Shown here piece by piece: positions 1,265-58,435 of a DNA stretch of 64,000 nucleotides. A program made the translations under genes and the position numbers. The stretch's first letter is position 1, and the number at the start of each line of letters is the position of its first letter. The stretch covers positions 640,001 to 704,000 of the forward strand of contig CBDDIJ010000002.1 of the NCBI GenBank assembly GCA_965228855.1, in the 5' to 3' direction. Origin of the DNA: Candidatus Obscuribacterales bacterium. Lineage in GTDB: Bacteria > Cyanobacteriota > Vampirovibrionia > Obscuribacterales > Obscuribacteraceae. Below the pieces are notes generated by a model. The model ran no database searches. It was not told the DNA's origin and saw nothing but the letters and a program-made list of their open reading frames with translations.

Positions 1265-1536
1265 CTACTATAGAGAGGCATAGCTCCTCCTGACGGAATC
1301 GCGCCCCCGGTTCTCGCTACTATAGAGAGGCATAGTTTCTTCCGCCAAAATCGCGCCCAGCGGAAGGGATTCGAGCGTTTCTCTTTTTCTCGACCTTCGC
1401 TTGTCTATCCCACGATGACGGAAATGGAAGAATCCGGCATCGTGGGATAGACAGCCAAAGCCGACATCTGACTTGGCTCCGACCTGTCAATTAGACAGCG
1501 ACAGAATTCGCCAAATCCGTCGCTCTGGAATTGACA
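1265..1536. repeat. Dispersed CTACTATA/GACGG-N12-CCGTC element, locus A (52-bp duplicated left arm, two cores)
   Basis: CTACTATA at 1265 and 1317; palindromic cores at 1402-1453 and 1485-1536. Confidence 0.8.
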
Positions 1537-1629
1537 GGACGAGTCGTGTTTCTTGCAAAAAGATTCCATGGCACTACCCCGACTAACAAGCAATGTATAA
1601 TCCAAAGAAGCACGAGTGAGACGCCGTAA

Positions 1630-2022
1630 ATGCAACTGACAAAACTTTCGACAATAGTCATTGCAATGTGCACCGTATGCGGTTGCATAACCCACTTCTG
1701 TCAAAAACAGCTAGAGCAGTCACTCGACAAACGTCTCGAACAGTTTGGACGCCGACATCAAGACACCAGACCCGTCCGAAAAAACGACGAACTGGGCACC
1801 CTCTTTTACGCCAGACAAACAATCCCACGAGGCTCGATGATAAACATTGCGTTTGTATCCTCACAGCAGGTTGAGCGCAAACGAATTCCGATGGACGCGG
1901 TTCAACGATTCGAGCAAATGGCGAATTGCGTGTCGAGACATGATATTGTGAAAGGTGAAATAATCAGTACTCGCGAACTTCTTCCGGTGAGGTTCGCGAA
2001 TGACCAGAACAACGTGCGCTGA
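1630..2022 (+). CDS. SAF-domain protein (CpaB/FlgA-like), N-terminal membrane anchor
   Basis: YARQTIPRGSMI...SRHDIVKGEIIS fits the SAF beta-clip pattern. Confidence 0.65.
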   Translation: MQLTKLSTIVIAMCTVCGCITHFCQKQLEQSLDKRLEQFGRRHQDTRPVRKNDELGTLFYARQTIPRGSMINIAFVSSQQVERKRIPMDAVQRFEQMANCVSRHDIVKGEIISTRELLPVRFANDQNNVR

Positions 2023-2112
2023 CGATTGAGCAGGATAAAAGCCGCGATTTATCCTGCGCTGCGATGCACACCACAGGTGCCACCCTGATGCACACCGCAG
2101 GCGGTGCCAGCA

Positions 2113-4206
2113 CTACGACCTGGTAAAGTCGCGCTGTTGCACGCCCAAGTAGTAGACAGCCTGCCGAGCCAGATCAGCAGAGCTCAGGTTCGGATTCTTC
2201 ACCCGCAGCGACTCCTTCATTATTCGCATCTCGCCGGCACAAGAATCATCGTTTTGCATGCACAGCCAAAAATCCATGGGACTCGGTATTATTCGAACCA
2301 AACCGTAGTCGGTGCGCGTCTGAATAAAGCAAGGAATTACAGCTCCGTTATCTCTAGACGCATCCATTCCCAGCCATTCGAAAGCCCACGATTTTCTGTC
2401 GTGCTGCAAGAACTCACGGACAAGGCGCTTGTGCCTGGTTCGCTGGGGTAAGATGACTTTAGTATCGCAAGCAGCATCCAACAGTTCGATGATCCGGTTC
2501 GCACTTTGGAGCCGCGAGGTTACTTCGCTTGAGCAAAGCAAAATACCCATTCGTTGGACCTCTTCCAATAGTTTCTTAAACTGCCTCGCACCACCAGCGC
2601 CACCACACCACTCGCTGCTGGATGGAAGGAAAAGCGCGGTCGGTTTATTTCCGACACTGTATACCTCGCGGCAATCTTGCAGAAATTCAACGAACTCTGA
2701 CAAGTCTTGTTGCGGTTGAAGAATTGTCGCCACAGCATGTGGTTTCAAAGCAACTTTTCGAGGCAGACCCAGCTGGCAATCATTTACAAGCTCGCGACCT
2801 AAAACCTCTTGCAACGATGCGAAACTGTTGCGACCGTCCTCCACGTAAACCACATGGAAGTTGGCAGTTAGAAGCCGCACGCCCATGAGCGCGTTGAAAA
2901 AACTGAGGTCGGAATGCTCAGAGCCGACGGCTAAGATCCCGGGCTTCTTCGAATGATCGTATAACACCGGCTCATTGGACATCGCCGCAAAGCCCATCGG
3001 CAAACCAATAGAGAGCCCGCAAGATGCGCCGTACAAAGGCCAGTTTATTCGAGCGTCGGTGTGCGAGACAACGTGCGCGATGCCACCAGCATCGATACCA
3101 ATCGGAAGCGTAGATGTCCACGCGCTAAACTGATCGCACTTTGGCGTAATCAGAGCAGAGCGGGACGCAAGCTTGTCTTTGGCTGCTGTTTGCCAATTCT
3201 TGAGCTGCTTGTCGTCCCCAGCGACATGCGGTGCGATCGAGTAGTAAAAACTCATCTCGAAGAGGCTGTTTTCCGATGTCGAAATCATGCGATTAGCTCT
3301 GCGGCGGGTTTCCAAAGGCGTCTTCGCCGCGCGTTGCCGGACGGCGTTCTTGTCTCCTATCCGGCAGTGCACGCTAAGCGATGTGGCACACTCCATGGTC
3401 AGCAGATCTATCAACCAACCGTATCGAAGCTTGGCAGGCAGGCTTGATACCACTTGCACAGAGACTCTCGAACCATCTACAACTAAAAACTGTTTGCCGT
3501 TTTCGACCATCACATCTGGCATAGTTGATGCTCGCATCAACTCAACCGGCTCCTCTCTAAGTCCGGATGGATACGAGAGACGCATACAAGAATGAATCAG
3601 CGTGCGTGTTTCCGCGCGCGTAAGAACTTCAGGCGACTGTTTCGCCTTACTCAGAATTTTCGAAACGCGCTTGACAAACCGGTCGAGCAGCGCAATCTGT
3701 TTTTCCCTAGAGGATTTTTGGGAAAGCTCTGCGCCTAAAATGAGGTAGAACGATTTGCGTGGAACCAGGCGCTGCTCACACACTCGACTAAACCACTTGC
3801 GCGTATAGTCCGCGTACCACTCGAGATAAGCGTTGCCCTGGGCGTCGAGGTCCAGGACGTTTTCGCAGTGCTCACCTAAATCTAATGGTCGATTAATCGC
3901 CAGTAACTGTAGTGAGGTCTTCTCGCTCAGGCAATCGAGAATCGCACCGAACATGTCGTCGACGGCGGTGAAACCCCGTTGATCCGGAGGGATGGTGAAC
4001 CCGGTCAAACGTATGATCCTGCGCAACGACCCATCCACAAGCTCTATGAGTCCAGCATCTTCATCGGCACCGGGAATAGAACGGATCTGTGGAAGCGCAT
4101 CGTGCGCGGTTTCCGGCGGTTTCAAGTTCGGACGATGTATGGAATCGAAGACGAACAGTTTGCGGGCTGAAGGCATACTTGTGCTCCGGTCATTACTTGA
4201 AAGCAT
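2113..4206 (-). CDS. VirB4/TraE-like protein with degenerate ATPase motifs (start uncertain: 4206 or 4176)
   Basis: Overall layout resembles Gram-positive-type VirB4 (GLIELVDGSLRRII, WTSTLPIG, GLPMG..NEPVLYD); Walker A position reads GSEHSDLS. Confidence 0.55.
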   Translation of the reverse strand: MLSSNDRSTSMPSARKLFVFDSIHRPNLKPPETAHDALPQIRSIPGADEDAGLIELVDGSLRRIIRLTGFTIPPDQRGFTAVDDMFGAILDCLSEKTSLQLLAINRPLDLGEHCENVLDLDAQGNAYLEWYADYTRKWFSRVCEQRLVPRKSFYLILGAELSQKSSREKQIALLDRFVKRVSKILSKAKQSPEVLTRAETRTLIHSCMRLSYPSGLREEPVELMRASTMPDVMVENGKQFLVVDGSRVSVQVVSSLPAKLRYGWLIDLLTMECATSLSVHCRIGDKNAVRQRAAKTPLETRRRANRMISTSENSLFEMSFYYSIAPHVAGDDKQLKNWQTAAKDKLASRSALITPKCDQFSAWTSTLPIGIDAGGIAHVVSHTDARINWPLYGASCGLSIGLPMGFAAMSNEPVLYDHSKKPGILAVGSEHSDLSFFNALMGVRLLTANFHVVYVEDGRNSFASLQEVLGRELVNDCQLGLPRKVALKPHAVATILQPQQDLSEFVEFLQDCREVYSVGNKPTALFLPSSSEWCGGAGGARQFKKLLEEVQRMGILLCSSEVTSRLQSANRIIELLDAACDTKVILPQRTRHKRLVREFLQHDRKSWAFEWLGMDASRDNGAVIPCFIQTRTDYGLVRIIPSPMDFWLCMQNDDSCAGEMRIMKESLRVKNPNLSSADLARQAVYYLGVQQRDFTRS

Positions 4207-4238
4207 TATGCCCGATCTCGCCGGAGTTCGCTTGTCGT

Positions 4239-4526
4239 TGTCTACGACTCGTAGACGGAATTCCGGAATTTCGTCTACGAGCGATAGCCAAGCGCAGGGA
4301 CAGGCAAGAGGCAAAATGTCCATAAGCTGCTGTCAGCCGGACTTTTGCCAAGTTCGTTTTCACGGCGCCATATAGTAAAAAATCTCAACTTACCCATAAG
4401 CCGCTGTCAGCCGGACTTTTGCCAAATTCGGCTTCACGGAGGTATATAGTAGCAATTCTCAATTTGCTCAACAGCTGCTGTCAGCCGGACATTTGCCAAG
4501 CTCGGCTTCACGAAGACATATAGTAG
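4239..4526. repeat. Dispersed element locus B: core plus 3 x 74-bp tandem repeat
   Basis: Core at 4239-4290; repeat units start at 4321, 4395 and 4469, each carrying TATAGTA(G/A). Confidence 0.85.
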
Positions 4527-4534
4527 CCATTTTC

Positions 4535-4571
4535 AAAAAAAAACTGAAGCGGGGGGTTGGACCCGCTTCAG
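4535..4571 (-). terminator. Rho-independent terminator
   Basis: ctgaagcggg...cccgcttcag hairpin preceded by an A run on the + strand. Confidence 0.75.
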
Positions 4572-4580
4572 CTCTTGTTT

Positions 4581-7318: not shown

Positions 7319-7542
7319 GCATTTACAAACCAATGAAACCGCGTCGCGGTTCTTCGTTGTTTTGACGCGCCCAGTCAGGTCAACGGCAGGCGGTGGATGT
7401 GATTTTGTCGCACTAGGGAAACCGAGTGCCACAGTCCATCTGCCGCTTGCCGTCTCAAAAACCCGTCTACTACTCCATGTCCAATGCTCAATGCAACAGC
7501 GATGCCAGTTTCGAGGGCTCTTCCCAAAAGCTTGTTCGTGTT

Positions 7543-8006
7543 TGGCGGTCTGGCGTAGACGGAATTCCGAAAAACCGTCTATCCAGCAGCGACAAAAGCT
7601 TGGTTTTGATGAGTGCCTACCGGTAGGAAGTCCTTGCGATCCGGTCTACAAGAGCCTTTGGACGATTTGTAGTTATACCAAGACATATAGTAGTGTGCTT
7701 GACGGTCTGGCGTAGACGGAATTCCGAAAAACCGTCTATCCAGCAGCGACAAAAGCTTGGTTTTGATGAGTGCCTACCGGTAGGAAGTCCTTGCGATCCG
7801 GTCTACAAGAGCCTTTGGACGATTTGTAGTTATACCAAGACATATAGTAGTGTGCTTGACGGTCTGGCGTAGACGGAATTCGCTGAAACCGTCTATGCAG
7901 GAGCGACAAAAGCCTGGTTTTGATGAGGGCCTACCTGTAGGAAGTCCTTGCAAGCCCGTCTACGAGGGACTTTGGGGACTTTAAGGCATACCAAGGCATA
8001 TAGTAG
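7543..8006. repeat. Dispersed element locus C: 3 x 157-bp tandem repeat (core plus right arm)
   Basis: Units start at 7546, 7703 and 7860; first two look identical, third diverged; TATAGTAG at 7686, 7843 and 7999. Confidence 0.95.
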
Positions 8007-8026
8007 GCAGATTCTCCAGGGGGTGG

Positions 8027-12630: not shown

Positions 12631-12853
12631 CTACTATATGATTCCATAACCTTCGTTTGACTCCGATGCTGACTGGACGGGGATTCGCGGATGAACCACC
12701 AGTGTTAAACCTGTGCAGCGGGAAGCCGTGTCTATGATGTGATGACGGAATTCGCAAAAACTGTCGCTCCTAGACTGACAGGGCGAGAGCTAGACCCGGT
12801 CTGTCAATGAGTCAGCGACGGAATTCGCTGAAACCGTCGCTCCTGGATTGACA
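12631..12853. repeat. Dispersed element locus D (left arm plus two cores)
   Basis: CTACTATA at 12631; GACGG-N12-C(T/C)GTC at 12744 and 12817. Confidence 0.8.
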
Positions 12854-13523
12854 GAGGACCTGATTCGCAAACTGACATCGGAATCTGATTCGCAAACCGC
12901 GCTAGATGTGGACAGGCACCACCCTTGACAAATCACCACTCAACCGAACCCCCAGCACGAGGTTTCCAAGCAGCGCACACCACCAATAACCAATTCGAAA
13001 CTTTCGAGAACTAATAACTGTTTTCGTTTGTTGACAAGATGTCGCTCCGTTAGCGCAAACGCTACGCGCCCAGTGGTCAAGAGCTCCCGGGCATACAGTC
13101 TTTCTACAAAAGAGAAATGGAGTTTTAGCCGGATAGAGATGAGATCTCTCAACACTTTTTGCTAGATAGAAAGCCTTCACCTCCCATTCGTGATCAGGCA
13201 CACTCGTCAGCTTCGTTCTTTCATCTACGCACGGAAATTCAGTTCCAACTCGGTCTGCATTGACTGGAGTGGCGGCAACCATTTGCAGCAATTCGCACGG
13301 CGAGCGGCTCGAACGGTTTTGACGCAAAGTGAACTTGACTCTGTACGCGCTGGGGACGTCGAAGCACAGTCAACGAGTATGGGCTCTGCAAGGCACTCTT
13401 GCGAGTTTGAAGAAAGCACTACGCATACCTTGCACCGGAGGGTCGATTTTCAGATCTCTGGTCAGGACTTCCACCCTCTCCCCTTCATGCAAGAACCACA
13501 CTGTCCATATAGGGACATAGACC

Positions 13524-16664: not shown

Positions 16665-16899
16665 CTACTATCGAACGTACGAGCCCATCCGTTCAAACGA
16701 GTCCAGGCATGGCGCTTCCAAAGCACACCGTCAAACTGCAACGAGTTTTGTCTACGGTACGATGACGGATCTTGTGGATTCCGTCATCATACCGTAGACA
16801 AATTCGGTTTTCTCAAACCAACGAGAACGTTCGTTTAGCTCGAAACCATTGCCCTGTCTCGAACTGAGCCACGAAGAAGCGTATTATCTCTTATAGTAG
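16665..16899. repeat. Dispersed element locus E (complete, 235 bp)
   Basis: CTACTATC at 16665; core at 16749-16800; TATAGTAG at 16892-16899. Confidence 0.85.
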
Positions 16900-28785: not shown

Positions 28786-28803
28786 CAATCACTGGAGAAT
28801 CTC

Positions 28804-29424: not shown

Positions 29425-29438
29425 CCAGGAGATCCACT

Positions 29439-40813: not shown

Positions 40814-41176
40814 CTACGATAGAATATCGTGGATAAAGATGGGACAAAAAACTAGCTGCCGCTGGATTTACAGACCTTCTCTACAAACCGCGCTTGCGTC
40901 TTGGCTATCACAGAGCGACGGATTTCGCGAAAAGCGGCAATCCAGGAGCGACAAATCGCACGCGAACCATCCACCGACGTCGACCGCAAGGGCTGTATCA
41001 GTTCGCCTGTGTAGCCTTTGGGACTCTACAAGATACTTGGTTCTATAGTAGTGGGTTTGGCGCAATCCAGGAGCGACAAAGTGCACGCGAACCATCCACC
41101 GACGTCGACCGCAAGGGCTGTATCAGTTCGCCTGTAAGGCATTCCGGCTTTAGCGAGATACTGTCGTTTTTAGTAG
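40814..41176. repeat. Dispersed element locus G (complete, right arm duplicated at 125 bp)
   Basis: CTACGATAGAA at 40814; core at 40902-40953; TATAGTAG at 41044; about 74-bp direct repeat at 40937 and 41062. Confidence 0.85.
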
Positions 41177-47330: not shown

Positions 47331-48035
47331 TCAAACGACCCGTCGAGCAAAGAAACTGACATCGACGCAAGACCATGTGACCAAACGACCGCCGTACTCA
47401 AGATCTTCTTTGTACGGAACGAGTGAAAGCCTGTCGACAAGCCAGCCCTCGTAGTGCTTTTGGAGCATTTCGGTAACCTGCTCTTTCGTCATCGGAGTTT
47501 CCACTCTAGTGTCAATCACTTCGCCGGTATCGCATGCGGTGACATGACGGTCGGTTGAAATCGTCAAGCGATTAGCGCCAAAGACTTTAGTACCACGCAC
47601 GATCTGTTCCAGGAGCCGGTTTACACCCTGCAAGGAACTGCTGTGCTCGAGAACAGAAACAGATAATATCGCATCATAACTATCTGGCTCTATCTCAATC
47701 GCATCCATGTCGATGCATCGACCGAAGATACTTCCCTGCACGTCAAACTGTTCCGCATAGCCGTGAAGAAGCTCAATAGCTGATTCTAGAACGTCATAAC
47801 AATCTACATGAACGCCATTCAGCTTCAATTCTCTCGCTATCGGGATCGCATTTCGACCGACACCACATCCGATATCAAGCACTTTCGAATTCGAGCGCCC
47901 GGAAAGAAACGAGACTAAGCGATTAACCTCTTCATCCGGCTTTTGGAGCCAACCTTCTTCAAACAGCTTATGAGAAGAATAGTAGCTCTCGTGATACCGA
48001 ATGGTTTCTTCTCGAGCCACTTGATTGAGTTCCAT
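47331..48035 (-). CDS. Class I SAM-dependent methyltransferase (TehB-like)
   Basis: VLDIGCGVGRNAIP; AILSVSVLEH. Confidence 0.88.
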   Translation of the reverse strand: MELNQVAREETIRYHESYYSSHKLFEEGWLQKPDEEVNRLVSFLSGRSNSKVLDIGCGVGRNAIPIARELKLNGVHVDCYDVLESAIELLHGYAEQFDVQGSIFGRCIDMDAIEIEPDSYDAILSVSVLEHSSSLQGVNRLLEQIVRGTKVFGANRLTISTDRHVTACDTGEVIDTRVETPMTKEQVTEMLQKHYEGWLVDRLSLVPYKEDLEYGGRLVTWSCVDVSFFARRVV

Positions 48036-49512
48036 GATTCTCCGTCCTTGTGAAGCGATCCTGTTTTACCACTTCGAACCAGGGCATAGGAACTGCATCG
48101 GTGAAGTGATACGAAGCGCGAGCAGGCAAGACGAGATCGCTGGATAGCGCAAGTTCCGAATACAACGATGGCGGAACCCGCATCAAAACGCCACTCTGGT
48201 CGTATGATCCTTTTTCAACCGTTCCCATCGCATATTCCGGCAACATGACGACTGGCAGCTTCCGAATCGCACGAGTGCGTCTCATCATCGGCTTCAACGT
48301 GTACGAAAGCTGATGACGAATATTGCTATCGGCAAGAAATGCTGCGAGCTGTTTCAAACTCTCATAGAGCGAAACTTGACCCAATGCTTCACGGTGACCG
48401 GAAACATAATCCCTTACGGCAAGCTGGAATTCGTCGTTATCGAGCGACCATTCCGTATGAATTGCGTGCTTCAAAATGTTCCAGATCCAACTGGACGTCA
48501 CTCGGTGATTTCCATCCGCAACGCTGTCAAATTCATTGACGACGACCGGAGCAAAGCCACGCGCCGGAAGGTTCAACAACTCTTGAATCAAGCGCTCGGG
48601 AACGCACAGTTCCGTTGCGCGAATTTGACTGAGCGGCATAAAACCGACATCTAGCCAGGTGTTCGAATACCAACCGGAAGCCACGGGCATGATGCGCGAA
48701 ACATAAGTCTCATATCCGGCAAATGATTCCAGCTCAAACAAAAACGGCAGCAAATTTCGCTCATTCAATCTCGGTCTAGCCTGCTCGATCAGCCGGCTGA
48801 CAACAGCGATCGCAAACTTCGAATAAACAGGCGCAGGAGTATCGGTCCAGACTGCGTGAATCAGTTTCAAACACGCGGGCGCAGAATCTTTGGCATTGAT
48901 TGCGTTGAAAGCGAGAGAATAGAGCTGTTTCAAATATTCCTGTTTCGCGACACTAAGCTCTCTATCGGTTCTACAATCGACGGCTCCGTGATCGTAATCC
49001 GCGGTGATGAACTGTAGCTTCGGTTTCTCAATGTTCGCCCAGGGCCAAAAGGGCGTCTCATCGACGGCGGTCTTCATCAATCCAATGCTTCCAAGACCAT
49101 CCGAAGGCGAGCCTTTCGAGTAGTCAAACAGTTGCAGAAACTGTTCGAAAGCAAGCGAACCGCGATAACGAAATTTTTCATCAGTAGCGCGCGAAAGGAC
49201 CGTATTCCCCGGGAAAAGCGACAGGATGCGGGGCAAACCACCATCACACTCGAGAGCTGCCGAGACGCGGCGCGAGTAGAAGTGGTCCCAGATGCGAACA
49301 AGATAGCGCGGCACATCAGACGCGCCGACCGACGCATCAAGCCAATTGTAACCGTCAAGGCTACTCAGATCGTCGTGAGTTTCACCGACTAACGGCAACG
49401 ATTTTTGCTTGCTGTAAGCTGACAAATCCGGATCGCGAAACACATTGGTCGTACCGCGACCAACAGCCTGAAAGCCGTATGTTCCGAGAAGTGATGCCGT
49501 TGATGTGACCAT
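47968..49512 (-). CDS. Hypothetical protein with ParB/Srx-like motif
   Basis: Long ORF; APVVVNEFDSVADGNHRV. Confidence 0.65.
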   Translation of the reverse strand: MVTSTASLLGTYGFQAVGRGTTNVFRDPDLSAYSKQKSLPLVGETHDDLSSLDGYNWLDASVGASDVPRYLVRIWDHFYSRRVSAALECDGGLPRILSLFPGNTVLSRATDEKFRYRGSLAFEQFLQLFDYSKGSPSDGLGSIGLMKTAVDETPFWPWANIEKPKLQFITADYDHGAVDCRTDRELSVAKQEYLKQLYSLAFNAINAKDSAPACLKLIHAVWTDTPAPVYSKFAIAVVSRLIEQARPRLNERNLLPFLFELESFAGYETYVSRIMPVASGWYSNTWLDVGFMPLSQIRATELCVPERLIQELLNLPARGFAPVVVNEFDSVADGNHRVTSSWIWNILKHAIHTEWSLDNDEFQLAVRDYVSGHREALGQVSLYESLKQLAAFLADSNIRHQLSYTLKPMMRRTRAIRKLPVVMLPEYAMGTVEKGSYDQSGVLMRVPPSLYSELALSSDLVLPARASYHFTDAVPMPWFEVVKQDRFTRTENHGTQSSGSRRNHSVSRELLFFS

Positions 49513-49677
49513 TTGTTAGACCCACCGAGAAGTGAACCAGGTGAAGTTCCCAGACCGAGAAAAACATCAATTTCATTTTGGGTGAAACCTTGGAAATTGT
49601 ACAGAGAACTAGTTTTTAGGTTTGTTATAATGCTCGTTTGTGATACCAAATGTAAAACTACTCGGTCGAGATTTTTC

Positions 49678-50091
49678 ATGGAAACCGCACGAAAAACCCG
49701 AGCACAAAGAGCTGTTTTGACGGCACTGAAAGAGCTCCAAAACGCTACTCCTATGGAGCTTTTCGACCGTATCAATGCTCTGGGAAACTCCAGGCACATT
49801 GGTCTCACGAGCGTTTATCGCGCACTCAACTCGCTCGTAGAAAGTGGCGAATTAAGGCGAGAAAGACTTAATGATACAACCGCGAGATATGGCTTCAACG
49901 ACAGCGCAAAGACGCACAGCCACCACCTTGTATGCGTCAAGTGCAATGAAACCAAACCGCTCGATCAGTGTCCTTTTGACGAAAAAGCGATCACGCTGCA
50001 AGAAAAGTTCACACCCCTGTATCACAATTTCCAAATCTTCGGAATCTGCTTCAAATGCGACGAAAGTCCAGTCACCGCACCAGCCAATTAG
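49678..50091 (+). CDS. Fur family transcriptional regulator
   Basis: TRAQRAVL, GLTSVYRAL, HSHHLVCVKC, GICFKC. Confidence 0.93.
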   Translation: METARKTRAQRAVLTALKELQNATPMELFDRINALGNSRHIGLTSVYRALNSLVESGELRRERLNDTTARYGFNDSAKTHSHHLVCVKCNETKPLDQCPFDEKAITLQEKFTPLYHNFQIFGICFKCDESPVTAPAN

Positions 50092-50122
50092 GTGAAACGA
50101 TTACTGAACTGAAACGAGCGGC

Positions 50123-50159
50123 AAAAAGAAAACGACCTCCCGCCGGAGCGGAAGGTCGT
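50123..50159 (-). terminator. Terminator at the end of the PLP operon
   Basis: A run followed by acgacctcccgc...gcggaaggtcgt. Confidence 0.65.
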
Positions 50160-50208
50160 GAATTGAACGTACGTTGAAAGCCTTTTGGCGCCAGCGCTTA
50201 CGCGCCGA

Positions 50209-51486
50209 CTAGCAAGAGCTGTTTAGCTCTGAGCGAATTAGAGAAACGATCTTCCCGGTCAAATTTGCCGGATATCCATAGACCTTTATGACGCTGTTCG
50301 TCTCGCCTGGGAGCGGATTCTTCGCCGCCGCTTCAGGACAGACCCATTGCAAAACCAGCAAATCGTGAAAGCGATGTGTTGCGCCGTCGCCTTCGTGTTC
50401 ATACTGATACAACGGCAGAATACTGTGGAAAACAAAGCCTTCCTTGCGCAAGAAGTTCGCGATTTCAATCGCCGATGGATGATTGGCTTTGATCGTCGCA
50501 CGGATAAAGCGCTTGCCGGGCGCATTTTTCACTTCGTTGATTTTCTCTTTCACGGTTTTCGCATTCGCATGAATATCGAACCCGGAGCCGAAGTCGATGT
50601 AAGTGTGGGCGTAATCAGGCTTGAAGTCCACCTCGAAGTGATCGCTGCGGTCCGCGTTTTCACTCTTCTCATTCACCCGATAATCGAGATGCTCGGCGTA
50701 CTGGGCAAGAATTTCTCTGCCCAACGACTCATACTCATCCGGTACATAAACAAATCGCGGCTTGACCAGCGCGGTCGCCAATTGTTGTTCCGACTCGCTC
50801 GCCTTACCGACAACCTGTCGCGACTCCCGAATCAAGGTTTCGGTCAACTGCGAGTCCGACAATTTGTCCAGGTTACCAATTCGCCCTCTGAGATTCGGCA
50901 ACTCTTTGGCGAAACGACCATGTAACTGGCCGGCCCAAACAACCGACTCCGGTCGATCTACAAAAAACACATTCGGATAATGACTGTAACCGAATCCGAG
51001 GAAACGGTTGTATCCATGCTTGATGTGAGCTGTTTGAGACGCGAGATTGTGAGTCACCATCTCCGTAATGTTCGAAAAGAAAAAGCAATCGTTGATCACT
51101 CGCTTGGCGCCTTCAACGAGAATGCTTCCAATTCCCAAACCGCGGTATGCGCGATCAACCGCCATGCAGTTAAACTCGCAAGCTAGCTCGTGCAGCGAAT
51201 CCGCGATTATGCCTCCAACAATTTCGCCATCAAGCTCAGCGATAAACAAACGGCGATAAGGACTCTCGACTGTCTCCAAAACGCCTGCAGCACTATAAAG
51301 CGACGGATCAGGATATGGCTCGTGACCTTCCGCAGCAATTCCGTTTTTCCCTAGCGCCGCTTCGAACATCGCGGCGACTTTGCGCGCCTTCGCTTCATCA
51401 ACCAGCTCCCCGGTCAGTTCATAAACCTTACAACGCTGTGCAGCATCGGCTTTTGTAAGTTTGGAAATAGTTTTAGTCGCGGTCAT
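50209..51486 (-). CDS. GNAT family acetyltransferase (probably tandem GNAT)
   Basis: MAVDRAYRGLGIGS; second GNAT-like half FLRKEGFVF; 4-bp overlap with the upstream gene. Confidence 0.8.
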   Translation of the reverse strand: MTATKTISKLTKADAAQRCKVYELTGELVDEAKARKVAAMFEAALGKNGIAAEGHEPYPDPSLYSAAGVLETVESPYRRLFIAELDGEIVGGIIADSLHELACEFNCMAVDRAYRGLGIGSILVEGAKRVINDCFFFSNITEMVTHNLASQTAHIKHGYNRFLGFGYSHYPNVFFVDRPESVVWAGQLHGRFAKELPNLRGRIGNLDKLSDSQLTETLIRESRQVVGKASESEQQLATALVKPRFVYVPDEYESLGREILAQYAEHLDYRVNEKSENADRSDHFEVDFKPDYAHTYIDFGSGFDIHANAKTVKEKINEVKNAPGKRFIRATIKANHPSAIEIANFLRKEGFVFHSILPLYQYEHEGDGATHRFHDLLVLQWVCPEAAAKNPLPGETNSVIKVYGYPANLTGKIVSLIRSELNSSC

Positions 51487-53015
51487 GCTCTCACTCCAAT
51501 CTTTTCTTTAACAACTTTGGCGCAGTTATATCCAGCTATTCCTGTGACGTTGCCACCGCCAAAAGTGCCAGCGCCACATAAAAACAGGTTTTCGACAGGG
51601 CTTGCATACGGCTCACAGCCAGCCAAATTCCGTTTTTCAAAAACATATTCGCCGGTCAACGGCAAATGCCAACACATCGCAGTCGACGCGCCATATCGCG
51701 TTTTCAAATCTTCAGGCGTCACTATGAAAGTGTCCGCTATCATCTCTTCGATGTTAGGCGCAAACGGTTTTAGCGCCGCAATAACCGCAACACGAATAAG
51801 CTCCTTCGATGATTCGTTCCACGCCTCGCCGTTGTTCGTCACCGGCATCGTATGGATGTCGATGTTCATGTGATGCTGTCCTGCAGGGGCGACCGTATCA
51901 TCTGTGACGGTTGGGAACGCCATCGTCATCATGAGATGTTCGGGCATCTGACCATTCGAGACCCGCTTGAAGTCTGATATCACACCATCCACCGGAGGGG
52001 CGACGACAATGATGCCCGCGTAATTATGATTCAATGAATCCAGTGTCGGGAAAGTCGGCAAGCCCTTCAGGAGAAAATGAACTTTGCATGCCGACACCTG
52101 CGTCATCGGTGAATTGATTTGCCTGTTCAGCTCGTCGGATAGCTGTACACCAGGAACCAGGTTCTTCAACGTTGAATAAGGGTCGACGTTGGAAACCACA
52201 ACATCAAATTCCTCGACCGATCCATCTTCGAGCAAAACGCCCCTGGCGCGCCCATCGACAACGTTGATTGAGGAAACTCTTACGCCCGTTTTAATATTGA
52301 CGCCGCTCGCCTGAGCACTGCTCGCGATCGATTCGCTGACCTTGCCCATACCGCCGCGAACCTGTCCCCAGGCGCCTTCGATGCCACAGGTCTCCGCGGT
52401 GCCGTGATGCATGCAACCAAAGACGCTGCCTTTGTTAGATGCAAAACCTGGTGTGCAGGTTGCGGCAGCTGCCTTGAGATCGGGATTTTTGCAGTAGTGA
52501 TCGAAGACGTCGAACAAACTGCCGTCGAAAAGATTGTCGGCGAGTACCTTGAGGTCGTTTTCACGCAATAGTTCAACTAATTGCTGACGGGTGGTTTTCG
52601 GCTTGTAATAGTAAGGACCGATCAGCGCAGCACCTTTTCCCATGTCGGTCCAAAACTGTATCCATCCCTTGCGGTCATCTTCGGTAAGCTCACCGGCAGC
52701 GATCTTCGATTCGGATCCATCGCGCGGAGTAAACACATAACCATTGTTTGGAAGCAAAACAATCTCAGCCGGATCGGTCAGGTACGGTTTAAGACCGTGA
52801 GCATCAAGCTTGAGGTCCTCGATTATCTGTCGACGAAACATACCGTAGTAACTGGCGACAGTCGAAATCTGATGCCCGGGAAAAATTTCCTCGGTTATGC
52901 ACAGCCCGCCGACGCGCTCACGCGCTTCGAAGACCGTGACATCGAATCCGTCCCTGGCAAGATATCCGGATAATACCAGACCATTGTGACCACCACCGAC
53001 GATACCGACTTTCAT
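51483..53015 (-). CDS. FAD-dependent oxidoreductase, phytoene dehydrogenase/PYROXD2-like
   Basis: VGGGHNGL..FEARERVGG, RGGMG, LFLCGAGTFGGGNVTGIAGYNCA. Confidence 0.9.
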   Translation of the reverse strand: MKVGIVGGGHNGLVLSGYLARDGFDVTVFEARERVGGLCITEEIFPGHQISTVASYYGMFRRQIIEDLKLDAHGLKPYLTDPAEIVLLPNNGYVFTPRDGSESKIAAGELTEDDRKGWIQFWTDMGKGAALIGPYYYKPKTTRQQLVELLRENDLKVLADNLFDGSLFDVFDHYCKNPDLKAAAATCTPGFASNKGSVFGCMHHGTAETCGIEGAWGQVRGGMGKVSESIASSAQASGVNIKTGVRVSSINVVDGRARGVLLEDGSVEEFDVVVSNVDPYSTLKNLVPGVQLSDELNRQINSPMTQVSACKVHFLLKGLPTFPTLDSLNHNYAGIIVVAPPVDGVISDFKRVSNGQMPEHLMMTMAFPTVTDDTVAPAGQHHMNIDIHTMPVTNNGEAWNESSKELIRVAVIAALKPFAPNIEEMIADTFIVTPEDLKTRYGASTAMCWHLPLTGEYVFEKRNLAGCEPYASPVENLFLCGAGTFGGGNVTGIAGYNCAKVVKEKIGVRA

Positions 53016-53047
53016 TTTTTACTTCCTAACGGACCTTTCAGTCCCCA

Positions 53048-54328
53048 CTAACAGACACTGTCTTCGAGCACTTCGATAAATGCGTCAATTTCCTCTTTGG
53101 TGTTATACACCTGCAAGGAAACTCTTACATACTGGTCTTCTTCGCTTGCCTTGCTGACGCAGTGGTCGCCCGTGCGAACAAGAATGTTCTCACTGTCGAG
53201 CATGAAGCCGAGATCGGAAACCGACACTTCCTGGATGCGAAAAGCAAGAATGCCATATCCGCCAGGACAGCCGCAGCGTCCGGGACCGGGACCAAAATCA
53301 ACACCCGGGATTTCTTTAACCTTTTCGTAGAGATAACGCGTCAAATTTGAAAGACGCGCTGCGATGTTTTCGACCCCAATGTTTGAAACAAACTCAACGG
53401 CTGGAACGAGAGATAGTATCGATGGGATGTTCGGGGTGCCGGACTCGAGGAGATCTTGAAGCGTCGGCGCACTGAATTCGGTTTCACTTTCAGCGGAGAG
53501 CGTCGCGCCCATGCCACCTACGCGAACGGGGGTGAGCTCAGGCTGATACTTCTCGCTTACCCAGAGAACGCCCACACCGTTTCCAGCAAACATTTTGTGA
53601 CCAGAGAAGGAAACAAAATCGACGTCCAGTTCCTTCACATCTACTGGAATATGACTCACACTTTGGCTTGCATCGAGCGAGATGAGCACATCAGGTCCGA
53701 CGATTTCGCGAATGTCGGATACTTCCATGTCCATGCCGTAAACATGGTGAATATGAGACATGGCTATCAATCTGGTTTTCGAACTCACGCCTTCACGGAT
53801 GGTTCTCAAATCATAATCCCCGACGTCGTGAATCTCGAAGGGAACGATTTTGATGTTCTTACCAAACCCAGCCAGTATGCGCTTTACGTTAAACCAGGGC
53901 AGCACCGCAGACTTGTGGTCCTGCATGCAAAGCATGATTTCATCGCCGTCGTTTAAATTCGCAAGCCCCCAGGATAGAGCGACGGTGTTTAAACTGTCGG
54001 TCGCACCGCTTGTGAAAACGACGTCCTCGGGACGCGCGTTGATCAACCGCGCGACAGTGGCGCGGCTGTTTTGAATAGCTTGAAGAGTCTGGGAGGAGAG
54101 CCTGTAAGATGCGCGACCGGCATTGCTGCATGATTTCGAATAATATTCGTTGATTACTCGAATTACCTCGGACGGTTTTTGTGTCGTTGAGGCGTTATCG
54201 AAAAAACACACTCCCGGGCGTTCCTTCAGGATCGGGAACTGAGCACGGACGGCGGAGACATCGACGGTATCCTCGGCGATCGGTTTGATTTCGCAGGCGG
54301 TGCCTGCTGTCGCTAGAGTTGATGCCAT
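53048..54328 (-). CDS. Cysteine desulfurase-like (SufS group) PLP enzyme
   Basis: DNASTTQKP, FTSGATDSLN, SFSGHKM, ESGTPNI, VRTGDHC. Confidence 0.9.
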   Translation of the reverse strand: MASTLATAGTACEIKPIAEDTVDVSAVRAQFPILKERPGVCFFDNASTTQKPSEVIRVINEYYSKSCSNAGRASYRLSSQTLQAIQNSRATVARLINARPEDVVFTSGATDSLNTVALSWGLANLNDGDEIMLCMQDHKSAVLPWFNVKRILAGFGKNIKIVPFEIHDVGDYDLRTIREGVSSKTRLIAMSHIHHVYGMDMEVSDIREIVGPDVLISLDASQSVSHIPVDVKELDVDFVSFSGHKMFAGNGVGVLWVSEKYQPELTPVRVGGMGATLSAESETEFSAPTLQDLLESGTPNIPSILSLVPAVEFVSNIGVENIAARLSNLTRYLYEKVKEIPGVDFGPGPGRCGCPGGYGILAFRIQEVSVSDLGFMLDSENILVRTGDHCVSKASEEDQYVRVSLQVYNTKEEIDAFIEVLEDSVC

Positions 54329-54429
54329 ACGATAAGTCTCCTACACTCCGGGTTCACTCAGTTGAGTAACTCAGTTTCCTGAAAAACGTTGCGAGCAGCG
54401 CGCTGCCGCCCGCAACGTCTGTTTAGAAC

Positions 54430-55782
54430 TTAGCTGACAGCGCCGGCCAGTTCGCGGTTTTTCTTTTTGATCGATTTCTCGGTCGGCATCGACGCATCAC
54501 GCCAGCCGACGAAGCCACCACTCAAGCTCGCACATTCGACGCCTTTGTCGGCATAGAAAGCGGCAAAGCGCTTGGACTGATCGCCTTGAGGGCAGACGAA
54601 GAGAACCTTCTGACCGTTTGAGAACGGAACTCCGGCGTCGGTGATCTCATCGAGTGCATCCGTGGGGATGTTGATGGAACCAGGGATTCTCGAGGCTTTG
54701 AACGCAAGGGCTCCACGCATATCAACAATGATGAGCGGCTCTTTCGAGTCGATCCACTTTTGCGCTTCTTGCGGAGTTACTTGCGGAGCAGCTTCTTGCT
54801 TTTCCGCCGAAACCTTTCTGATCGAATCTTCTTTCTCAGCCAGCGCAAACAAGGACGGACGCGCTTTCTGCAAGTACGAGAGGTACCATTCGACACGGTC
54901 GCATACGATGAACGCGGCTTTCTTGCGCTCGGTCAATGTCCCATCGATCTTCTTGAGATACTTGAGCGCTGCCGCCAAGCTCCCACCACCTGTGGGACCA
55001 GCAAGGATGCCGCATTTGCGAATCATCGTGAGCATGGCGTCTAGTGATTCGTCAGTGTCAACTACTACGATCTCGTCGTAGAAATCTTTGCGGAACAAAC
55101 CGACTTCATACATCTCGTCCTGGTTACGAATACCGGGGAGGAGGTGTCCTTTTGCTGCGATAACACCGACGTTCTTCATGTTCGGATTCTTCTCTTTCAA
55201 GAAGGTACCGGCACCGCGGGTAGAACCAGTCGTTCCCAGACCGCCGATGAAGTAGTCGATGGAACCTGCATCGTTATAGATTTCCGTCCCAGTCGTACCG
55301 TAGTGAGCGGTGATGTTTTTCTCGTTCGTATACTGTGAGGTGTGGAAATATTTGCCCGGCTCTTTTGCCATTTGTTGTTCGATAAATGTAATCGGATCGT
55401 TGGGGTCAGTCGGGTCCGGACATTCGCTCAAACCCGGCAGTTCATCGAGTTGCGCGCCGAGCAATTGCAGAATCTGTTTTACTTCTCTGACCTTGATTCT
55501 GTTCGTAACGATCTTGAATTCGACGTTATTGATCGAGCAAATCAATTGCATAGCCTTCGCCATGTTGCCGCTCGAGGATTCAATTACAGTCTTGCCTTCG
55601 CGCGCGATTTGTTCAATATCGTCTTTCAAAACATTCCAGCCGCTCTTGTCTTTGACAGAGCCGAATGGGTTCAGCAACTCGAGTTTGGCATACAAATCGA
55701 TGTTCTTCAGTCCGTGGATTTCAGGGCTGATTTCGAAAAGCGGTGTTTCGCCAATTAGCTCGGTAACATGTTTGACTAACAT
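54430..55782 (-). CDS. Cysteine synthase-family PLP enzyme fused to a rhodanese domain
   Basis: AKLELLNPFGSVKD, ESSSGN, GLGTTGS; C-terminal RIPGSINIP..FVCPQG..LSGGFVGW. Confidence 0.9.
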   Translation of the reverse strand: MLVKHVTELIGETPLFEISPEIHGLKNIDLYAKLELLNPFGSVKDKSGWNVLKDDIEQIAREGKTVIESSSGNMAKAMQLICSINNVEFKIVTNRIKVREVKQILQLLGAQLDELPGLSECPDPTDPNDPITFIEQQMAKEPGKYFHTSQYTNEKNITAHYGTTGTEIYNDAGSIDYFIGGLGTTGSTRGAGTFLKEKNPNMKNVGVIAAKGHLLPGIRNQDEMYEVGLFRKDFYDEIVVVDTDESLDAMLTMIRKCGILAGPTGGGSLAAALKYLKKIDGTLTERKKAAFIVCDRVEWYLSYLQKARPSLFALAEKEDSIRKVSAEKQEAAPQVTPQEAQKWIDSKEPLIIVDMRGALAFKASRIPGSINIPTDALDEITDAGVPFSNGQKVLFVCPQGDQSKRFAAFYADKGVECASLSGGFVGWRDASMPTEKSIKKKNRELAGAVS

Positions 55783-55846
55783 TTTGGTATCTCCGGGGTC
55801 GTTCTTGGTGTGGGGTTTACGGTGAGTGGGAAAACTTTTCGGGGGG

Positions 55847-57361
55847 CTAGATGATCGAATACTGCTCGTCGAGCATCCATTCGAATTTACCGTTTCGCTG
55901 ACGTACCGCGACTTTACGCGCGATGGGTTCCATCATTGAATTGGTGGCACTGAAGTCCATGAAGTAACCGGATGTGTTTGGGAACACGACCAGGTCGCCC
56001 GGTTCAGGCAATTGGGTCAAGAATGTTTTATGGCGATAAACCAAGTCGCTCTCCAGGCAAAGGTTACCCGCGAAGAAAACGCCGTGTTTACCGGGCTTTT
56101 CGCAAGGCGTCTGATTGAGAACGATTGGATCGACGAAAATTTCCTGATCGAGGAAAGTCACGTCCTGACGCTTCATGTTCAAGTTTACGAGCTGATCGCC
56201 TGTGCTTGACGGTCTCAGATTGTTGACCGAAGCGACGGTGATTCCGGTTTGAGTGACGAGCGAACGGCCCGGCTCAATCCAGAGTTCGATCATGTTGTCG
56301 CGGAGAAGCGCTCCAGCTGTTTTATCCGAGAGGTTGGGGAATTGGTGCGAGAGAATTTCGTCGAGGAAGTCCGGTCCGGATTTGTCGTCGTAATAGTTGT
56401 AGCTGTTGAAGTTGCCGCGCAGCTTGCCCTTTTCGGCGTACATGCCAAAGGCGTTACCTTGCCAGGTCATCGAAGGACCGGTGCCGAGGACGGCTTCTTT
56501 CAAAGCGCTCGTATACTCATTCCACTCTTGTTCGCTTTCGAGATAGTTGACTTTGAAGCCGCCGCCAATGCAGAGCACGCGAGGCTCGAATCCGCGTCCG
56601 AGAGCATCTTCGTAGAGCTCGATGCAGTTCTCAATCGCGACTGCACGTTCCGTAATGCTGACTGTATCGAGGTGGAAGGAGAAGCCCATGAAGTCGAGCG
56701 CGTCTTCGTTTTCTTCGATAATATCGAATGCTTCTTCCAGCTCGTTGATGGTGATGCCGAACCGGCTGCCTTTGTTTAAAAACCGCGAGTGATCGGCGTG
56801 GAAACCGGACAGGCGAATGAGTACTTTCGTTGGTTTTTGTAGTTTGAGAAACTGTCTGAGTTCGAGAACCTGATTCAGTTCCCAAATGCTGTCAATGCTG
56901 ATCGTGATTCCTTGCTGAAGCGCCAGTGCGAGAAATTCGCGATTCTTTGGACCGGTAGCTTCGATGCGATCGCCGGTGAAACCGGAGGATAAGCCGTGGC
57001 GCAATTCGTTGAGAGAGGAAACGTCGAGGCAGGCGTTCTCATGCGCGAGCTGGCGAACCAGGCTGTCGGACGAATTGGTTTTATGAGCGAAGAAAACCTT
57101 GCCGCGCAAACCGTGCTTTTTGAAAAGGGCATTGAACGATTCGACGTTGTCGTGAACCAGCTCGGGGAACATGACGTTAAGCGGACTTCCAAGAGCCTTC
57201 ACAAGCTCCTGGAGCTTCGTTTGATCGGCGAGGAAGTCTTTGATGACCGGATGAATTTTCGGGGTCAATGTGAGGGCTGCATAGCTGGCGATCGGTGGCG
57301 CGTTCGCCGCGGTGGCTTCCTGGTTTGCGTTTTCGGTTTCTGTTTTCAACGTCGCTACCAT
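55847..57361 (-). CDS. Fold-III PLP decarboxylase, Y4yA/diaminopimelate decarboxylase-like
   Basis: FFAHKTN, GFSFHLD, IGGGF, IEPGRSL, AGNLCLESD, NTSGYFMD. Confidence 0.88.
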   Translation of the reverse strand: MVATLKTETENANQEATAANAPPIASYAALTLTPKIHPVIKDFLADQTKLQELVKALGSPLNVMFPELVHDNVESFNALFKKHGLRGKVFFAHKTNSSDSLVRQLAHENACLDVSSLNELRHGLSSGFTGDRIEATGPKNREFLALALQQGITISIDSIWELNQVLELRQFLKLQKPTKVLIRLSGFHADHSRFLNKGSRFGITINELEEAFDIIEENEDALDFMGFSFHLDTVSITERAVAIENCIELYEDALGRGFEPRVLCIGGGFKVNYLESEQEWNEYTSALKEAVLGTGPSMTWQGNAFGMYAEKGKLRGNFNSYNYYDDKSGPDFLDEILSHQFPNLSDKTAGALLRDNMIELWIEPGRSLVTQTGITVASVNNLRPSSTGDQLVNLNMKRQDVTFLDQEIFVDPIVLNQTPCEKPGKHGVFFAGNLCLESDLVYRHKTFLTQLPEPGDLVVFPNTSGYFMDFSATNSMMEPIARKVAVRQRNGKFEWMLDEQYSII

Positions 57362-57476
57362 GTTCGGTTCGTCCCTTTTGCGTGACTTGGAGGCTTGATG
57401 CGCGGTCGGCTTTCGACAGACTGTCTCACCTCTGGAGGTATCGGATGTATATCCAACCGGAAAGGTAACACGGAAA

Positions 57477-57491
57477 TGATTACTATTCGCA
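57477..57491. promoter_or_regulatory. Fur/Zur-like box upstream of the PLP operon
   Basis: TGATTACTATTCGCA. Confidence 0.55.
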
Positions 57492-57575
57492 AGAAGGAAA
57501 CAGTCTATTTCATAAACATTGTCACATCATTGCCGGAAGCTCTTGAAGCCCACACACACAGGCTTCTTTGGGATA

Positions 57576-57947
57576 TCAAGCGGAGGTTAATTGTTTCACA
57601 ACCTTGTTACAGCTGTCCTGTTCAAGGTGCGAATAATCTCCCCGCTCAAGTTTCCCGGTGACCCAGTCAATGGCGATGTGCAGACCGGTGAGGATGGCCT
57701 TGATCCGCTCAACCGTGTGTTCGTTGTGGCAGCGCTCCGCCTGCATTCGAGCCACCAGGAGCTTGATTATCAGGTTATTGACGGCGCGAATGCGGCAGTC
57801 GTACACGCCGAAACCGAGCGAGATAATCACGTGCCTGGCGTCCTGCGCCGAGTTGTTGATTGTTTTCAAGCGATTGATGGTCGGCTCGGGAAAGCCATCA
57901 AGCCAGCGGAAAAATCGATCGGCGACAAATGCTCTATCTGGAACCAT
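57576..57947 (-). CDS. Hypothetical protein
   Basis: Same strand as neighbours; Fur-like box TGCAAGTGATTCTCA at 57994 upstream. Confidence 0.5.
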   Translation of the reverse strand: MVPDRAFVADRFFRWLDGFPEPTINRLKTINNSAQDARHVIISLGFGVYDCRIRAVNNLIIKLLVARMQAERCHNEHTVERIKAILTGLHIAIDWVTGKLERGDYSHLEQDSCNKVVKQLTSA

Positions 57948-58065
57948 AACAATGCAGCAGCTACGCCCACAGGCGGCGCCACCAATTCCTTTTTGCAAGT
58001 GATTCTCAACAAATCTATCCTACTAAATGAAACCGACTTGCGCAAGCCAGGTTTCTCCATCATCC

Positions 58066-58435
58066 CTACTATAAAAGACAGGACGAGCGAAGACGCAAAA
58101 CCATTACCAGCCATGGCTTTGCACAATCTACAGAATTTCCACACAGCCATTTGGCTACGAGAGAGCGACGGATTTCGCGAATTCCGTCATTGCAGGATAG
58201 ACAAGATTCTCTACTATAGAAGACAGGATAAGCAAAAGGCGCGAAACCATTTACAGCCATGGCTTTGCACAATCTACAGAATTTCCACACAGCCATTTGG
58301 CTACGAGAGAGCGACGGATTTCGCGAATTCCGTCATTGCAGGATAGCCAAACAGACGTTCGCCCGAGCAGGTGCTCCTACAATCCCTTACGGCACAAAGG
58401 TTTAGCGCCTCACTACATACGCTTATATATAGTAG
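58066..58435. repeat. Dispersed element locus H (complete, left arm plus core duplicated at about 146 bp)
   Basis: CTACTATA at 58066 and 58211; GACGG-N12-CCGTC at 58167 and 58313; TATAGTAG at 58428. Confidence 0.9.

Follow-up and report, generated by a model that had tools for sequence, protein, structure and literature searches.

What kind of sequence keeps a fixed helical spacing between a palindromic core and its flanking boxes, at many intergenic places, when the arms in between are of no common sequence? This question is raised by a window of 64,000 nucleotides (the whole stretch analysed here, G000:C2:640001-704000) from the 8.2-Mb, six-contig genome G000 of a Candidatus Obscuribacterales bacterium. 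Obscuribacterales is an order within the Melainabacteria, and the 16S rRNA of G000 is about 82% like that of cyanobacteria. Each repeat consists of a core (family A) and arms that end in inverted CTACTATA/TATAGTAG boxes. Cores of this family also flank a gene, L102, encoding a protein with a phospholipase D (PLD) fold and a helix-turn-helix (HTH) domain. This protein is likely to bind the cores and to nick next to the CTACTA box, and would so drive duplication and spread of the repeat, a reading for which the probability is estimated at about two in three. The link between gene and repeat, drawn from sequence comparison, is very probable in itself. The origin-centred domain, the PLD-HTH gene and the parallel core families described below were beyond the view of an earlier, sequence-only reading of the window.

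Architecture of the repeat

All 17 exact boxes counted in the sequence-only reading were found in their places, and their number is far above chance, as resampling of the window with a second-order Markov model gave a mean of 0.25 and a maximum of 2 in 60. The 13 core coordinates all coincide with cores from a 56-bp weight matrix, which upon iteration detects 211 cores in G000 whichever threshold between 10 and 18 bits is applied; reversed, it detects none. Being ungapped, the matrix is blind to cores decayed by indels, of which about 19 orphan half hits and one decayed core give an impression. A core does occur at every locus, as had been claimed, but only 7 of the 13 show the exact GACGG-N12-CCGTC pattern; an eighth exact match at 25311 lies inside a gene and is due to chance. 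The constancy of the N12 spacer holds genome-wide, where it is the sole enriched spacing (45 matches versus 4-21 for the other spacers of 4-24).

The half core is a 17-bp pseudo-palindrome, G[TG]C-N11-G[AC]C, composed of two 7-bp quarter sites. The two halves are 16 bp apart, with their centres 33 bp apart, and the box extends as CTACTATA-N6-CGTA into a third pseudo-palindrome, TAC-N11-GTA. Boxes are present on both sides at 70 of the approximately 160 loci, on one side at 73 and on neither at 17. Across 213 boxed locus ends, box start and core centre are separated by 100-102 bp (12), 110-114 bp (97), 120-126 bp (88) or 132-137 bp (16), which corresponds to classes at about 100, 112, 123 and 134 bp in steps of about 11 bp. 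Spacing in steps of about one helical turn was therefore correctly recognized in the window, whereas the proposed number of two classes has to be raised to four. Six of the seven left distances listed for the window (100, 99, 101, 103, 101, 102 and 113 bp, with 101 occurring twice) were directly recomputed, and across 75 orthologous halves the distance varies by no more than 2 bp. This phased nucleoprotein architecture, which had been suggested from the window, recurs throughout the genome and, with an unrelated core, in another genus.

The arms show no likeness between loci or between the two sides of one element and form no arm families. They differ between loci as described before, but they are not featureless, since weak words recur: CGTA (+14..17), CCnnAAA (about +28..35) and GGnTTT (about +48..55). 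Complete elements are 223-268 bp long, and the common array periods are 73, 146 and 156-158 bp. A search for target duplications of k=2-10 in 46 complete copies gave 0-2 direct matches, which is near expectation, and later edge mutation could have erased some. Left and right core positions that vary pair at 0.54, compared with 0.48 by permutation. Hairpin pairing is thus barely conserved, which points to double-strand binding. No Rfam model matched the window at its gathering score, indicating no known structured RNA.

The repeat is narrowly distributed. The exact core pattern was found at 15 loci of a single genome, a Candidatus Obscuribacterales bacterium, in a collection of 185,579 species, a search that may omit the window's own genome. 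The inner core pattern matches 120 times in G000, 128 times in its close relative G007 (about 95% identical) and 0-2 times in 39 other genomes. CTACTATA is the most over-represented 8-mer of the genome (292 versus 58 expected under a third-order model). CTACTATAT exceeds its reversed control only in G000 among 71 family genomes, a sample that G007 is outside of, and de novo 9-mer counts in relatives lacking the element gave no signal.

A predicted nuclease gene flanked by cores of the repeat

Domains were searched in 25 proteins encoded between or inside closely spaced elements. The partner candidate L102 (G000:C2:103074-103847) encodes 257 amino acids (AA) with PLD-like and HTH_3 domains and is flanked in the order box (-320), core (-226), gene, core (+809), box (+942). 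Five PLD-HTH paralogues exist in G000, all within or at the edge of the origin domain, one of which has no catalytic motif. Two paralogues adjoin core families of their own, at C2:1,043 kb (46 cores, 11 loci) and at C2:67 kb (about 23 cores, 8 loci).

Cognate cores of homologues were defined as inverted 18-mers 13-16 bp apart, complementary at 15 or more of 18 positions and located within 700 bp of the gene. Such cores were found at 10 of 23 full-length homologue loci compared to none of the 7 loci with the PLD domain only and 4 of 149 control genes; among 12 further homologue loci, 4 passed the core threshold. An inward CTACTA lies upstream at 9 of the 23 homologue loci versus 9 of the 149 control genes. 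The cognate cores differ in sequence, share the geometry of two 17-18-bp sites with centres about 33 bp apart and occur in 4-58 copies: 58 in G013, 13 in G042 and 4 in G005, with none in 4 other genomes in each case, 7 in G109 (4 in its congener G061, none in 3 others) and 6 in G006 (1 in G002, none in 3 others). The surroundings of 28 of these foreign cores, or 56 halves, contain 16 inward-pointing CTACTA and a single outward one. In G042, 7 of 8 occurrences fall into two classes 11 bp apart, at 96.5 bp (4) and 107.5 bp (3). Among 34 proteins placed in a tree, sister pairs with good support and known cores number three, and the cores within each pair are alike, which kinship alone can yield; a fourth, weakly supported pair has unlike cores.

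Full-length homologues are patchily distributed. Of 36 other family genomes, 23 have a match (17 full-length, 6 with the PLD domain only), and none of 24 genomes outside the family has a match. An alignment search found 6 full-length and 9 PLD-only proteins in 30 family genomes, none in 120 other genomes of the class and none in 300 others of the phylum, with 8 candidates scored per genome. Phage and plasmid collections contained no homologue. A single-protein metagenome scan gave 2 full-length loci among 80 kept, and a library of 50% clusters gave 819 hits. Homologues have so far been located only in one Obscuribacterales family, and 10 distant homologues from the cluster library carry no taxonomy.

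An alignment of the query with 109 full-length cluster hits (110 sequences) shows the catalytic motif H-x-K-x4-D-x6-G[ST]-x-N intact in 106. H107, D114 and N124 are invariant, and at least 90% of the sequences keep K109, G121, S122 and E133. C59, H99, C156 and C159 are also invariant and are predicted to form a zinc site. The structure model of L102 has a predicted local distance difference test (pLDDT) score of 95, and its top Foldseek matches are NucT, Nuc, Zucchini and PLD3. Both motif and fold are of the Nuc/BfiI type, and L102 is predicted to be a PLD-fold nuclease with a single HKD motif. Its HTH matches HipB and restriction-modification controller (C-) proteins. Among defence models, the PLD parts of Mokosh MkoC and MkoB come closest, matching 109 and 88 of the 110 members, respectively. 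A homodimer through the HTH was predicted with a score of 0.52 versus 0.00 for the best control (contact agreement at least 82%, pLDDT at least 79), and the score mark it passed is attained by 20 of 30 solved pairs and, among single chains, by 1 of 23. Confident contacts are found in residues 166-247, i.e. the HTH, and the remaining residues are uncertain; likeness to HipB may be the reason for this pass.

Two further observations concern the gene family. The paralogue L251 (G000:C2:917,966-918,766) has lost the catalytic motif and has no adjoining core, and its site in G007 is occupied by a core-bracketed gene for a membrane protein of 158 AA. Tandem PLD-HTH-like reading frames occur at G013:C13:426-427.6 kb and in G003:C770.

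Footprints of mutation and duplication at the box

Between G000 and G007, divergence is 11.2% in arms, 11.1% at third codon positions, 5.2% in other intergenic DNA, 4.1% in cores and 0.7% in boxes, the last value being partly an effect of pair selection. Two triplets stand out. Positions -3..-1 changed in 27% (21/78; 26 of 75 pairs with colinear flanks) and positions +19..+21 in 33% (67/201; 67 pairs), with 13% at +8..+13. The triplets thus flank the box, mirror each other about its dyad and mutate at about three times the neutral rate. Such symmetry would need local DNA breakage or opening. Gene conversion was considered as a cause and is unlikely, since variable positions inside the box site change in only 13%.

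Duplications point to the same place. They lie at the box edge in 55 of 357 boxed halves, a count in which G000 and G007 halves are not independent, versus 7 inside the arm and 6 at 422 random intergenic points. Among 74 duplications near boxes, the first C is the exact starting point of 18 and the ends of many fall in +12..+19; truncated cores joined to a fresh box via 5-12 bases also occur. Nuclease action at the box is probable.

Clustering in the origin domain and differences between strains

The distribution of cores in the genome is highly uneven, as 175 of 211 lie inside 1.05 Mb with sharp edges (C2:75-1,125 kb) and 36 in the other 7 Mb. For this reason the density in the window, about one locus per 8 kb, cannot be extrapolated, and an even density throughout the genome is not supported. 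The domain contains dnaA (793 kb) and the minimum of the cumulative skew (789 kb). Its 130 loci are located in 52 convergent, 66 co-oriented and 10 divergent gaps and 2 overlaps, with 138 convergent and 138 divergent among 827 background gaps (genes from a simple caller). The gene end that a box faces is the 3' end in 148 cases and the 5' end in 56. In G109, a single contig, all 7 cores lie in 2.28-2.99 Mb, with dnaA at 2.83 Mb and both genes within 160 kb of it; the distance to dnaA is 8 and 174 kb for two G012 genes and 1.0 Mb for the G016 gene. Local spread from origin-linked genes or repair from the early-replicated sister copy are guesses at the cause of this clustering.

An assembly chimera was rejected as an explanation, as G007 shows the same clustering and synteny, and the syntenic DNA of G002 and G005 is likewise GC-rich without carrying any family-A element. 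Composition in this region has its own peculiarities. Third-position GC is 0.62-0.73 in the domain versus about 0.54 elsewhere, and coding density is lower. Outside the domain are the rRNA gene (C5:632 kb) and, identified by a composition heuristic only, a putative cluster of ribosomal-protein genes (C3:2.6 Mb). C2:1-66 kb and the second half of C4 are very GC-rich (63-64%, third position 0.8) and may be islands or contamination, because in G007 C2:66 kb is followed directly by sequence of the C5 end, with about 20 kb of different DNA.

Several comparisons bear on the movement of cassettes and elements. At the 16.6-kb site of the window, G007 has a cassette with a 54%-identical homologue between two core arrays. 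The metagenome locus L143 contains this cassette (87.7% nucleotide, 94.5% AA identity) in reverse, inside the 12.7-kb array of the window, and G000 has it at neither site. At another site, G007 has a complete family-A element, and G000 keeps both boxes and the outer arms around a different PLD-HTH paralogue. The two genomes also differ in which elements or cargo occupy several of their intergenic sites, and where contigs of three other samples depart from the window, they do so at cores and boxes. In one orthologous pair the sequence switch is at the core centre, and other breakpoints lie elsewhere in the core.

Cores are also the targets of insertion sequences (IS). Two IS110 families, which insert into the right half of family-A cores at a position that is constant for each, are present in three identical copies (G000:C2:774,711-775,673, i.e. 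L082, 858.5 kb and 1,120.8 kb) and in four similar copies (C2:987.9 kb, i.e. L094, 198 kb, C5:861 kb and C5:1,462 kb). They use the cores as targets, because the interrupted cores are intact in G007, and these IS110-core pairs are natural target pairs for studies of IS110 guide RNAs.

Proposed mechanism and alternative explanations

Binding, cutting and strand transfer by the PLD-HTH protein are inferred here from sequence patterns. HipB-like HTH dimers would occupy the two core sites and set the specificity of the family, and the conserved PLD/zinc part would read the family-independent TAGTAG box on the same helical face via a DNA loop. Paired nicks about 20 bp apart would proceed through a covalent phospho-histidine intermediate as in BfiI, after which 3'-OH ends would prime displacement synthesis and be rejoined. 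Such nick-primed synthesis could produce the edge duplications and the 146/157-bp arrays, and exchange between cores could move gene and cargo cassettes. Published work describes single-HKD PLD nucleases with one active site between two chains, a phospho-histidine intermediate and a 3' leaving group (PMC2853115), the ability of BfiI to resolve this intermediate with an incoming 3'-OH by transesterification (PMC2475615), and a 5'-phosphotyrosine chemistry of TnpA-REP with the same polarity as that of PLD phospho-histidine (PMC8266576).

A more far-reaching version of this reading is tentative. It proposes a new class of mobile element, in which a PLD-fold phospho-histidine strand-transfer enzyme with a swappable HTH would nick a universal TAGTAG box phased with a tandem operator. 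With the same reserve, the operators might be amplified and dispersed and the enzyme's own gene and cargo shuttled in the origin domain, as a counterpart of RAYT/REPIN (described below) that arose from a defence nuclease and has more than 100 specificities. True strand-transfer mobility, taken separately, is conceivable at slightly below even confidence.

Several findings weigh against nicking and spread by the PLD-HTH protein. A complete element was in no case matched by a clean empty site, as the 60 anchored of 160 G000 loci are all present in G007 (0.8 Mb compared). Of 62 anchored G007 loci, 58 are common with G000, and one core-only array is simply absent. Insertion of a full element is thus left without a direct case, and family A may now be mostly inherited. 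Furthermore, 13 of 23 homologue loci have no core at 15/18, including L102 itself at 14; no box was found at the sampled G013 and G061 cores or at 5 of 6 G006 cores; G061 has four cores and no gene was found (genome 90% complete); and A' arrays in G000 are present without an L126-type gene. At the box, the 0.7% divergence and the 55 duplications are subject to the pair selection and non-independence mentioned above, and some junctions resemble the first approximately 10 flank bases, so that the break could be up to about 10 bp outside the box.

If the HTH bound cores as operators or centromere-like sites of an organiser or regulator of the origin domain, with the PLD part sensing or bridging and copies arising via slippage and recombination, this would fit the conservation of cores at each locus (4.1% versus 11% neutral), the lack of intermediate scores from 10 to 18 bits, the renewed clustering at dnaA in G109 and the frequent position of a core upstream of the gene, like an autoregulatory operator; XRE/DUF5919 regulators found as feature look-alikes (scores 0.80-0.82) are leads only. 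However, a host-serving role is unlikely, given that catalytic residues are kept in 106 of 110 homologues, there is turnover between congeners in the sequence of the cores and in their copy number (4 to 211), genes relocate between arrays, the symmetric hypermutable triplets need breakage or opening, and many family genomes have no full-length gene. Somewhat less probable still is an addiction or defence module, in which cores act as sinks or self-marks that restrain a toxic nuclease and are kept and multiplied by selection. The closeness of the PLD domain to Mokosh MkoC/MkoB, the antitoxin-like HTH and the constraint on cores would suit it, but the flanks read contain no conserved partner gene, cores persist where the gene was not found, and the phased box and the cassette movement are left unexplained.

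Inverted termini, the length of 223-268 bp, two IS110 families inside cores, the orthologous pair switching at the core centre and 17 matches to tyrosine recombinases in the genome, none of which was singled out as linked to the element, would be compatible with a classical miniature transposable element with inverted repeats (MITE) or att-like site served by a DDE or IS110 transposase or a tyrosine recombinase, with the PLD-HTH gene as a passenger. The MITE suggested earlier is nevertheless disfavoured by the lack of 2-10 bp target duplications in 46 copies and by the unrelated arms; the IS110s interrupt cores that are intact in G007, and if the PLD-HTH gene were a passenger, each lineage would not be expected to gain a new core to match it, so this origin is improbable. 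Outward promoters, with TATAGT as the -10 element, regulation from the core and antisense RNA into the neighbours, are the least credible explanation. TATAAT-type hexamers are a strand-biased upstream motif in G000 and boxes mostly face gene 3' ends (148 versus 56), but the invariant part across families is TAGTAG and not TAnnnT, arm profiles show no fixed -35, and neither the inner hypermutable triplet nor the nuclease would be explained.

Elements of the window

The elements and the candidate cargo of the window are as follows.

1265-1324, + strand: two inward CTACTATA boxes; 1265-1316 is a duplicated box region before the in-phase box at 1317.
1400-1538, no strand: two cores, left end of a box-core...core-box bracket; type A at 1400-1455, type A' (GTCAAT subtype) at 1483-1538.
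1630-4176: two genes without Pfam family inside the bracket (1630-2022, +; 2113-4176, -), possible cargo.
4237-4526, - strand: core 4237-4292, degenerate in-phase box 4371-4378 and duplicated outer arms to boxes 4445-4452 and 4519-4526.
7541-8006, - strand: three core-arm-box units in tandem, period 157, between convergent genes.
12631-12855, + strand: box, arm and two cores 73 bp apart; strains vary in unit number.
16665-16899, no strand: complete box-arm-core-arm-box element, core 16747-16802.
30084-30469, no strand: complete element 30244-30469 with core 30328-30383; boxes 30084 and 30165 each begin a duplicated outer arm.
40814-41051, no strand: complete element, core 40900-40955.
58020-58435, no strand: box-arm-core unit duplicated with period 146, cores 58150-58205 and 58296-58351, closing box 58428-58435.

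The four complete copies proposed earlier (16665-16899, 30244-30469, 40814-41051 and 58211-58435) are correct, those at 16665 and 40814 beginning with one-mismatch boxes. The in-phase box of locus 4254 is a degenerate one, TATAGTAA (4371), and the exact boxes at 4445 and 4519 belong to duplicated outer arms; other strains are shorter here by 109 or 147 bases. An extra degenerate box is present at 58020, and the syntenic gap of this last locus in G005 contains half-sites of G005's own core family. At the left end, contigs of two other samples break at 1254-1264, and another strain has 965 different letters in place of 1499-2093, starting inside the second core. The bracketed gene pair is present in G007 and was not found in the syntenic DNA of six relatives lacking the element. 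Brackets of this left-right type are marginally enriched (6 versus 2.8, P about 0.05).

Some observations concern the surrounding genes. A run of AT-richer genes at 47,968-57,361 (- strand) encodes a pyridoxal phosphate-dependent (PLP) decarboxylase, a cysteine-synthase/rhodanese fusion, a class V aminotransferase, an amine oxidase and a GNAT protein. It lies 3' of genes for a Fur-family regulator and an Asp/Asn hydroxylase-like protein, is kept in G005 and is possibly a metallophore or polyamine pathway. The tandem small genes at 28,111-30,014 (+ strand) encode only the N-terminal domain of M17 aminopeptidase, and this block is relocated among G000, G002 and G005.

Other repeated sequences were seen outside the window. 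The word families TGCCACCA and GTGATACC are 3-3.7-fold over-represented and spread genome-wide, possibly as Chi-like or regulator sites. Isolated double palindromes with a centre spacing of 33-34 bp occur at G000:C3:2,819,766 and C3:1,507,496, the second near the terminus-side skew switch. A conserved intergenic motif of about 100 nt at G005:C258 (about 51.0 kb) and G002:C101 (about 11.1 kb), located 3' of different genes, consists of a long hairpin GGTTCGAAAGG...CCTTTCGATTT followed by CTACT words and is a candidate RNA motif or another repeat.

Comparison with known systems

The transposases known so far, and the known enzymes that spread repeats, work by DDE, DEDD, HUH, tyrosine, serine or reverse-transcriptase chemistry. 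The literature, searched at the level of listings with subscription papers and supplements outside the scope, contained no description of the present system or of a PLD-family enzyme in a repeat-spreading role.

The closest parallel is the system of repetitive extragenic palindromes (REP), their REPIN and bacterial interspersed mosaic element (BIME) forms and the REP-associated tyrosine transposase (RAYT). It shares (PMC3733652, PMC8266576, PMC5581495) hundreds of lineage-specific palindromic intergenic repeats 3' of genes, partly in tandem arrays, a dedicated gene of low copy number with its own repeat on either side and several gene/repeat pairs per genome, the GTAG word and the use of repeats as IS targets. 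ISPpu9 inserts into REPs in this way. High copy number, extragenic 3' placement and arrays were all found for the cores, and the REPIN-like family considered in the sequence-only reading gains support from the dedicated flanked gene. The RAYT partner considered with it does not: Y1 transposase (PF01797) is absent from G000 and G007, the two genomes carrying the element, and occurs in 3 of 8 genus genomes, all without it. In contrast to the HUH tyrosine transposase RAYT, the enzyme here is a predicted PLD-fold HKD nuclease with an HTH. Unlike in REPs, which are 20-40-nt hairpins with GTAG or CGTC at the foot, GTAG lies 70-110 bp from the core edge in helical phase, and unlike REPs or REPINs the repeats cluster at the origin. 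The system also offers an independent case for why REP-like repeats persist and points to an origin-centred zone of gene turnover in Obscuribacterales.

With BfiI, Nuc/NucT and Zucchini, the predicted nuclease shares a single HKD per chain and the fold, and with BfiI the fusion of the PLD domain to a recognition domain (PMC2853115, PMC2475615). Unlike in BfiI, the HTH is C-terminal and XRE/HipB-like, the flanks read contain no methyltransferase partner, and the sites recognized are long and composite and have multiplied in the genome of the host itself. Mokosh MkoB/MkoC and helicase-PLD fusions represent the source family of the PLD domain, but the Mokosh-type PLD-only loci (7 examined) have neither cores nor HTH.

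Like MITEs and IS with inverted termini, the system has a long form (end-gene-end), a short form of joined ends and cargo-bearing forms, and inverted CTACTATA boxes stand on both sides at 70 of 160 loci in the manner of terminal inverted repeats. In contrast to them, there is no target duplication, the arms form no sequence family, the cassette moves core-to-core and not box-to-box, and the long form encodes PLD-HTH and no DDE, DEDD, HUH, serine or tyrosine enzyme. The pMV158-type origin, with an HUH Rep, a TACTACG nick motif and a bind locus 84 bp away (PMC1851628), is similar in number only, as box and core edge are 84 bp apart here and other core families have other spacings.

Many palindromic sites confined to the origin domain are also known from RacA/ram of Bacillus and from ParB/parS. 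Unlike in these systems, the putative binder here carries a nuclease and is mobile, and its site sequence changes between species. A changeable binding site apart from a constant cut site, in fixed helical phase, is of interest for the protein-DNA code and for nuclease design, and enzyme/site pairs are ready in the form of at least 15 homologue loci with a core that can be read off and about 110 diverse full-length homologues. Judged by sequence comparison, the repeat-plus-enzyme system is real, not ordinary and more extensive than the sequence-only reading proposed, and it has so far been seen only in one Obscuribacterales family.

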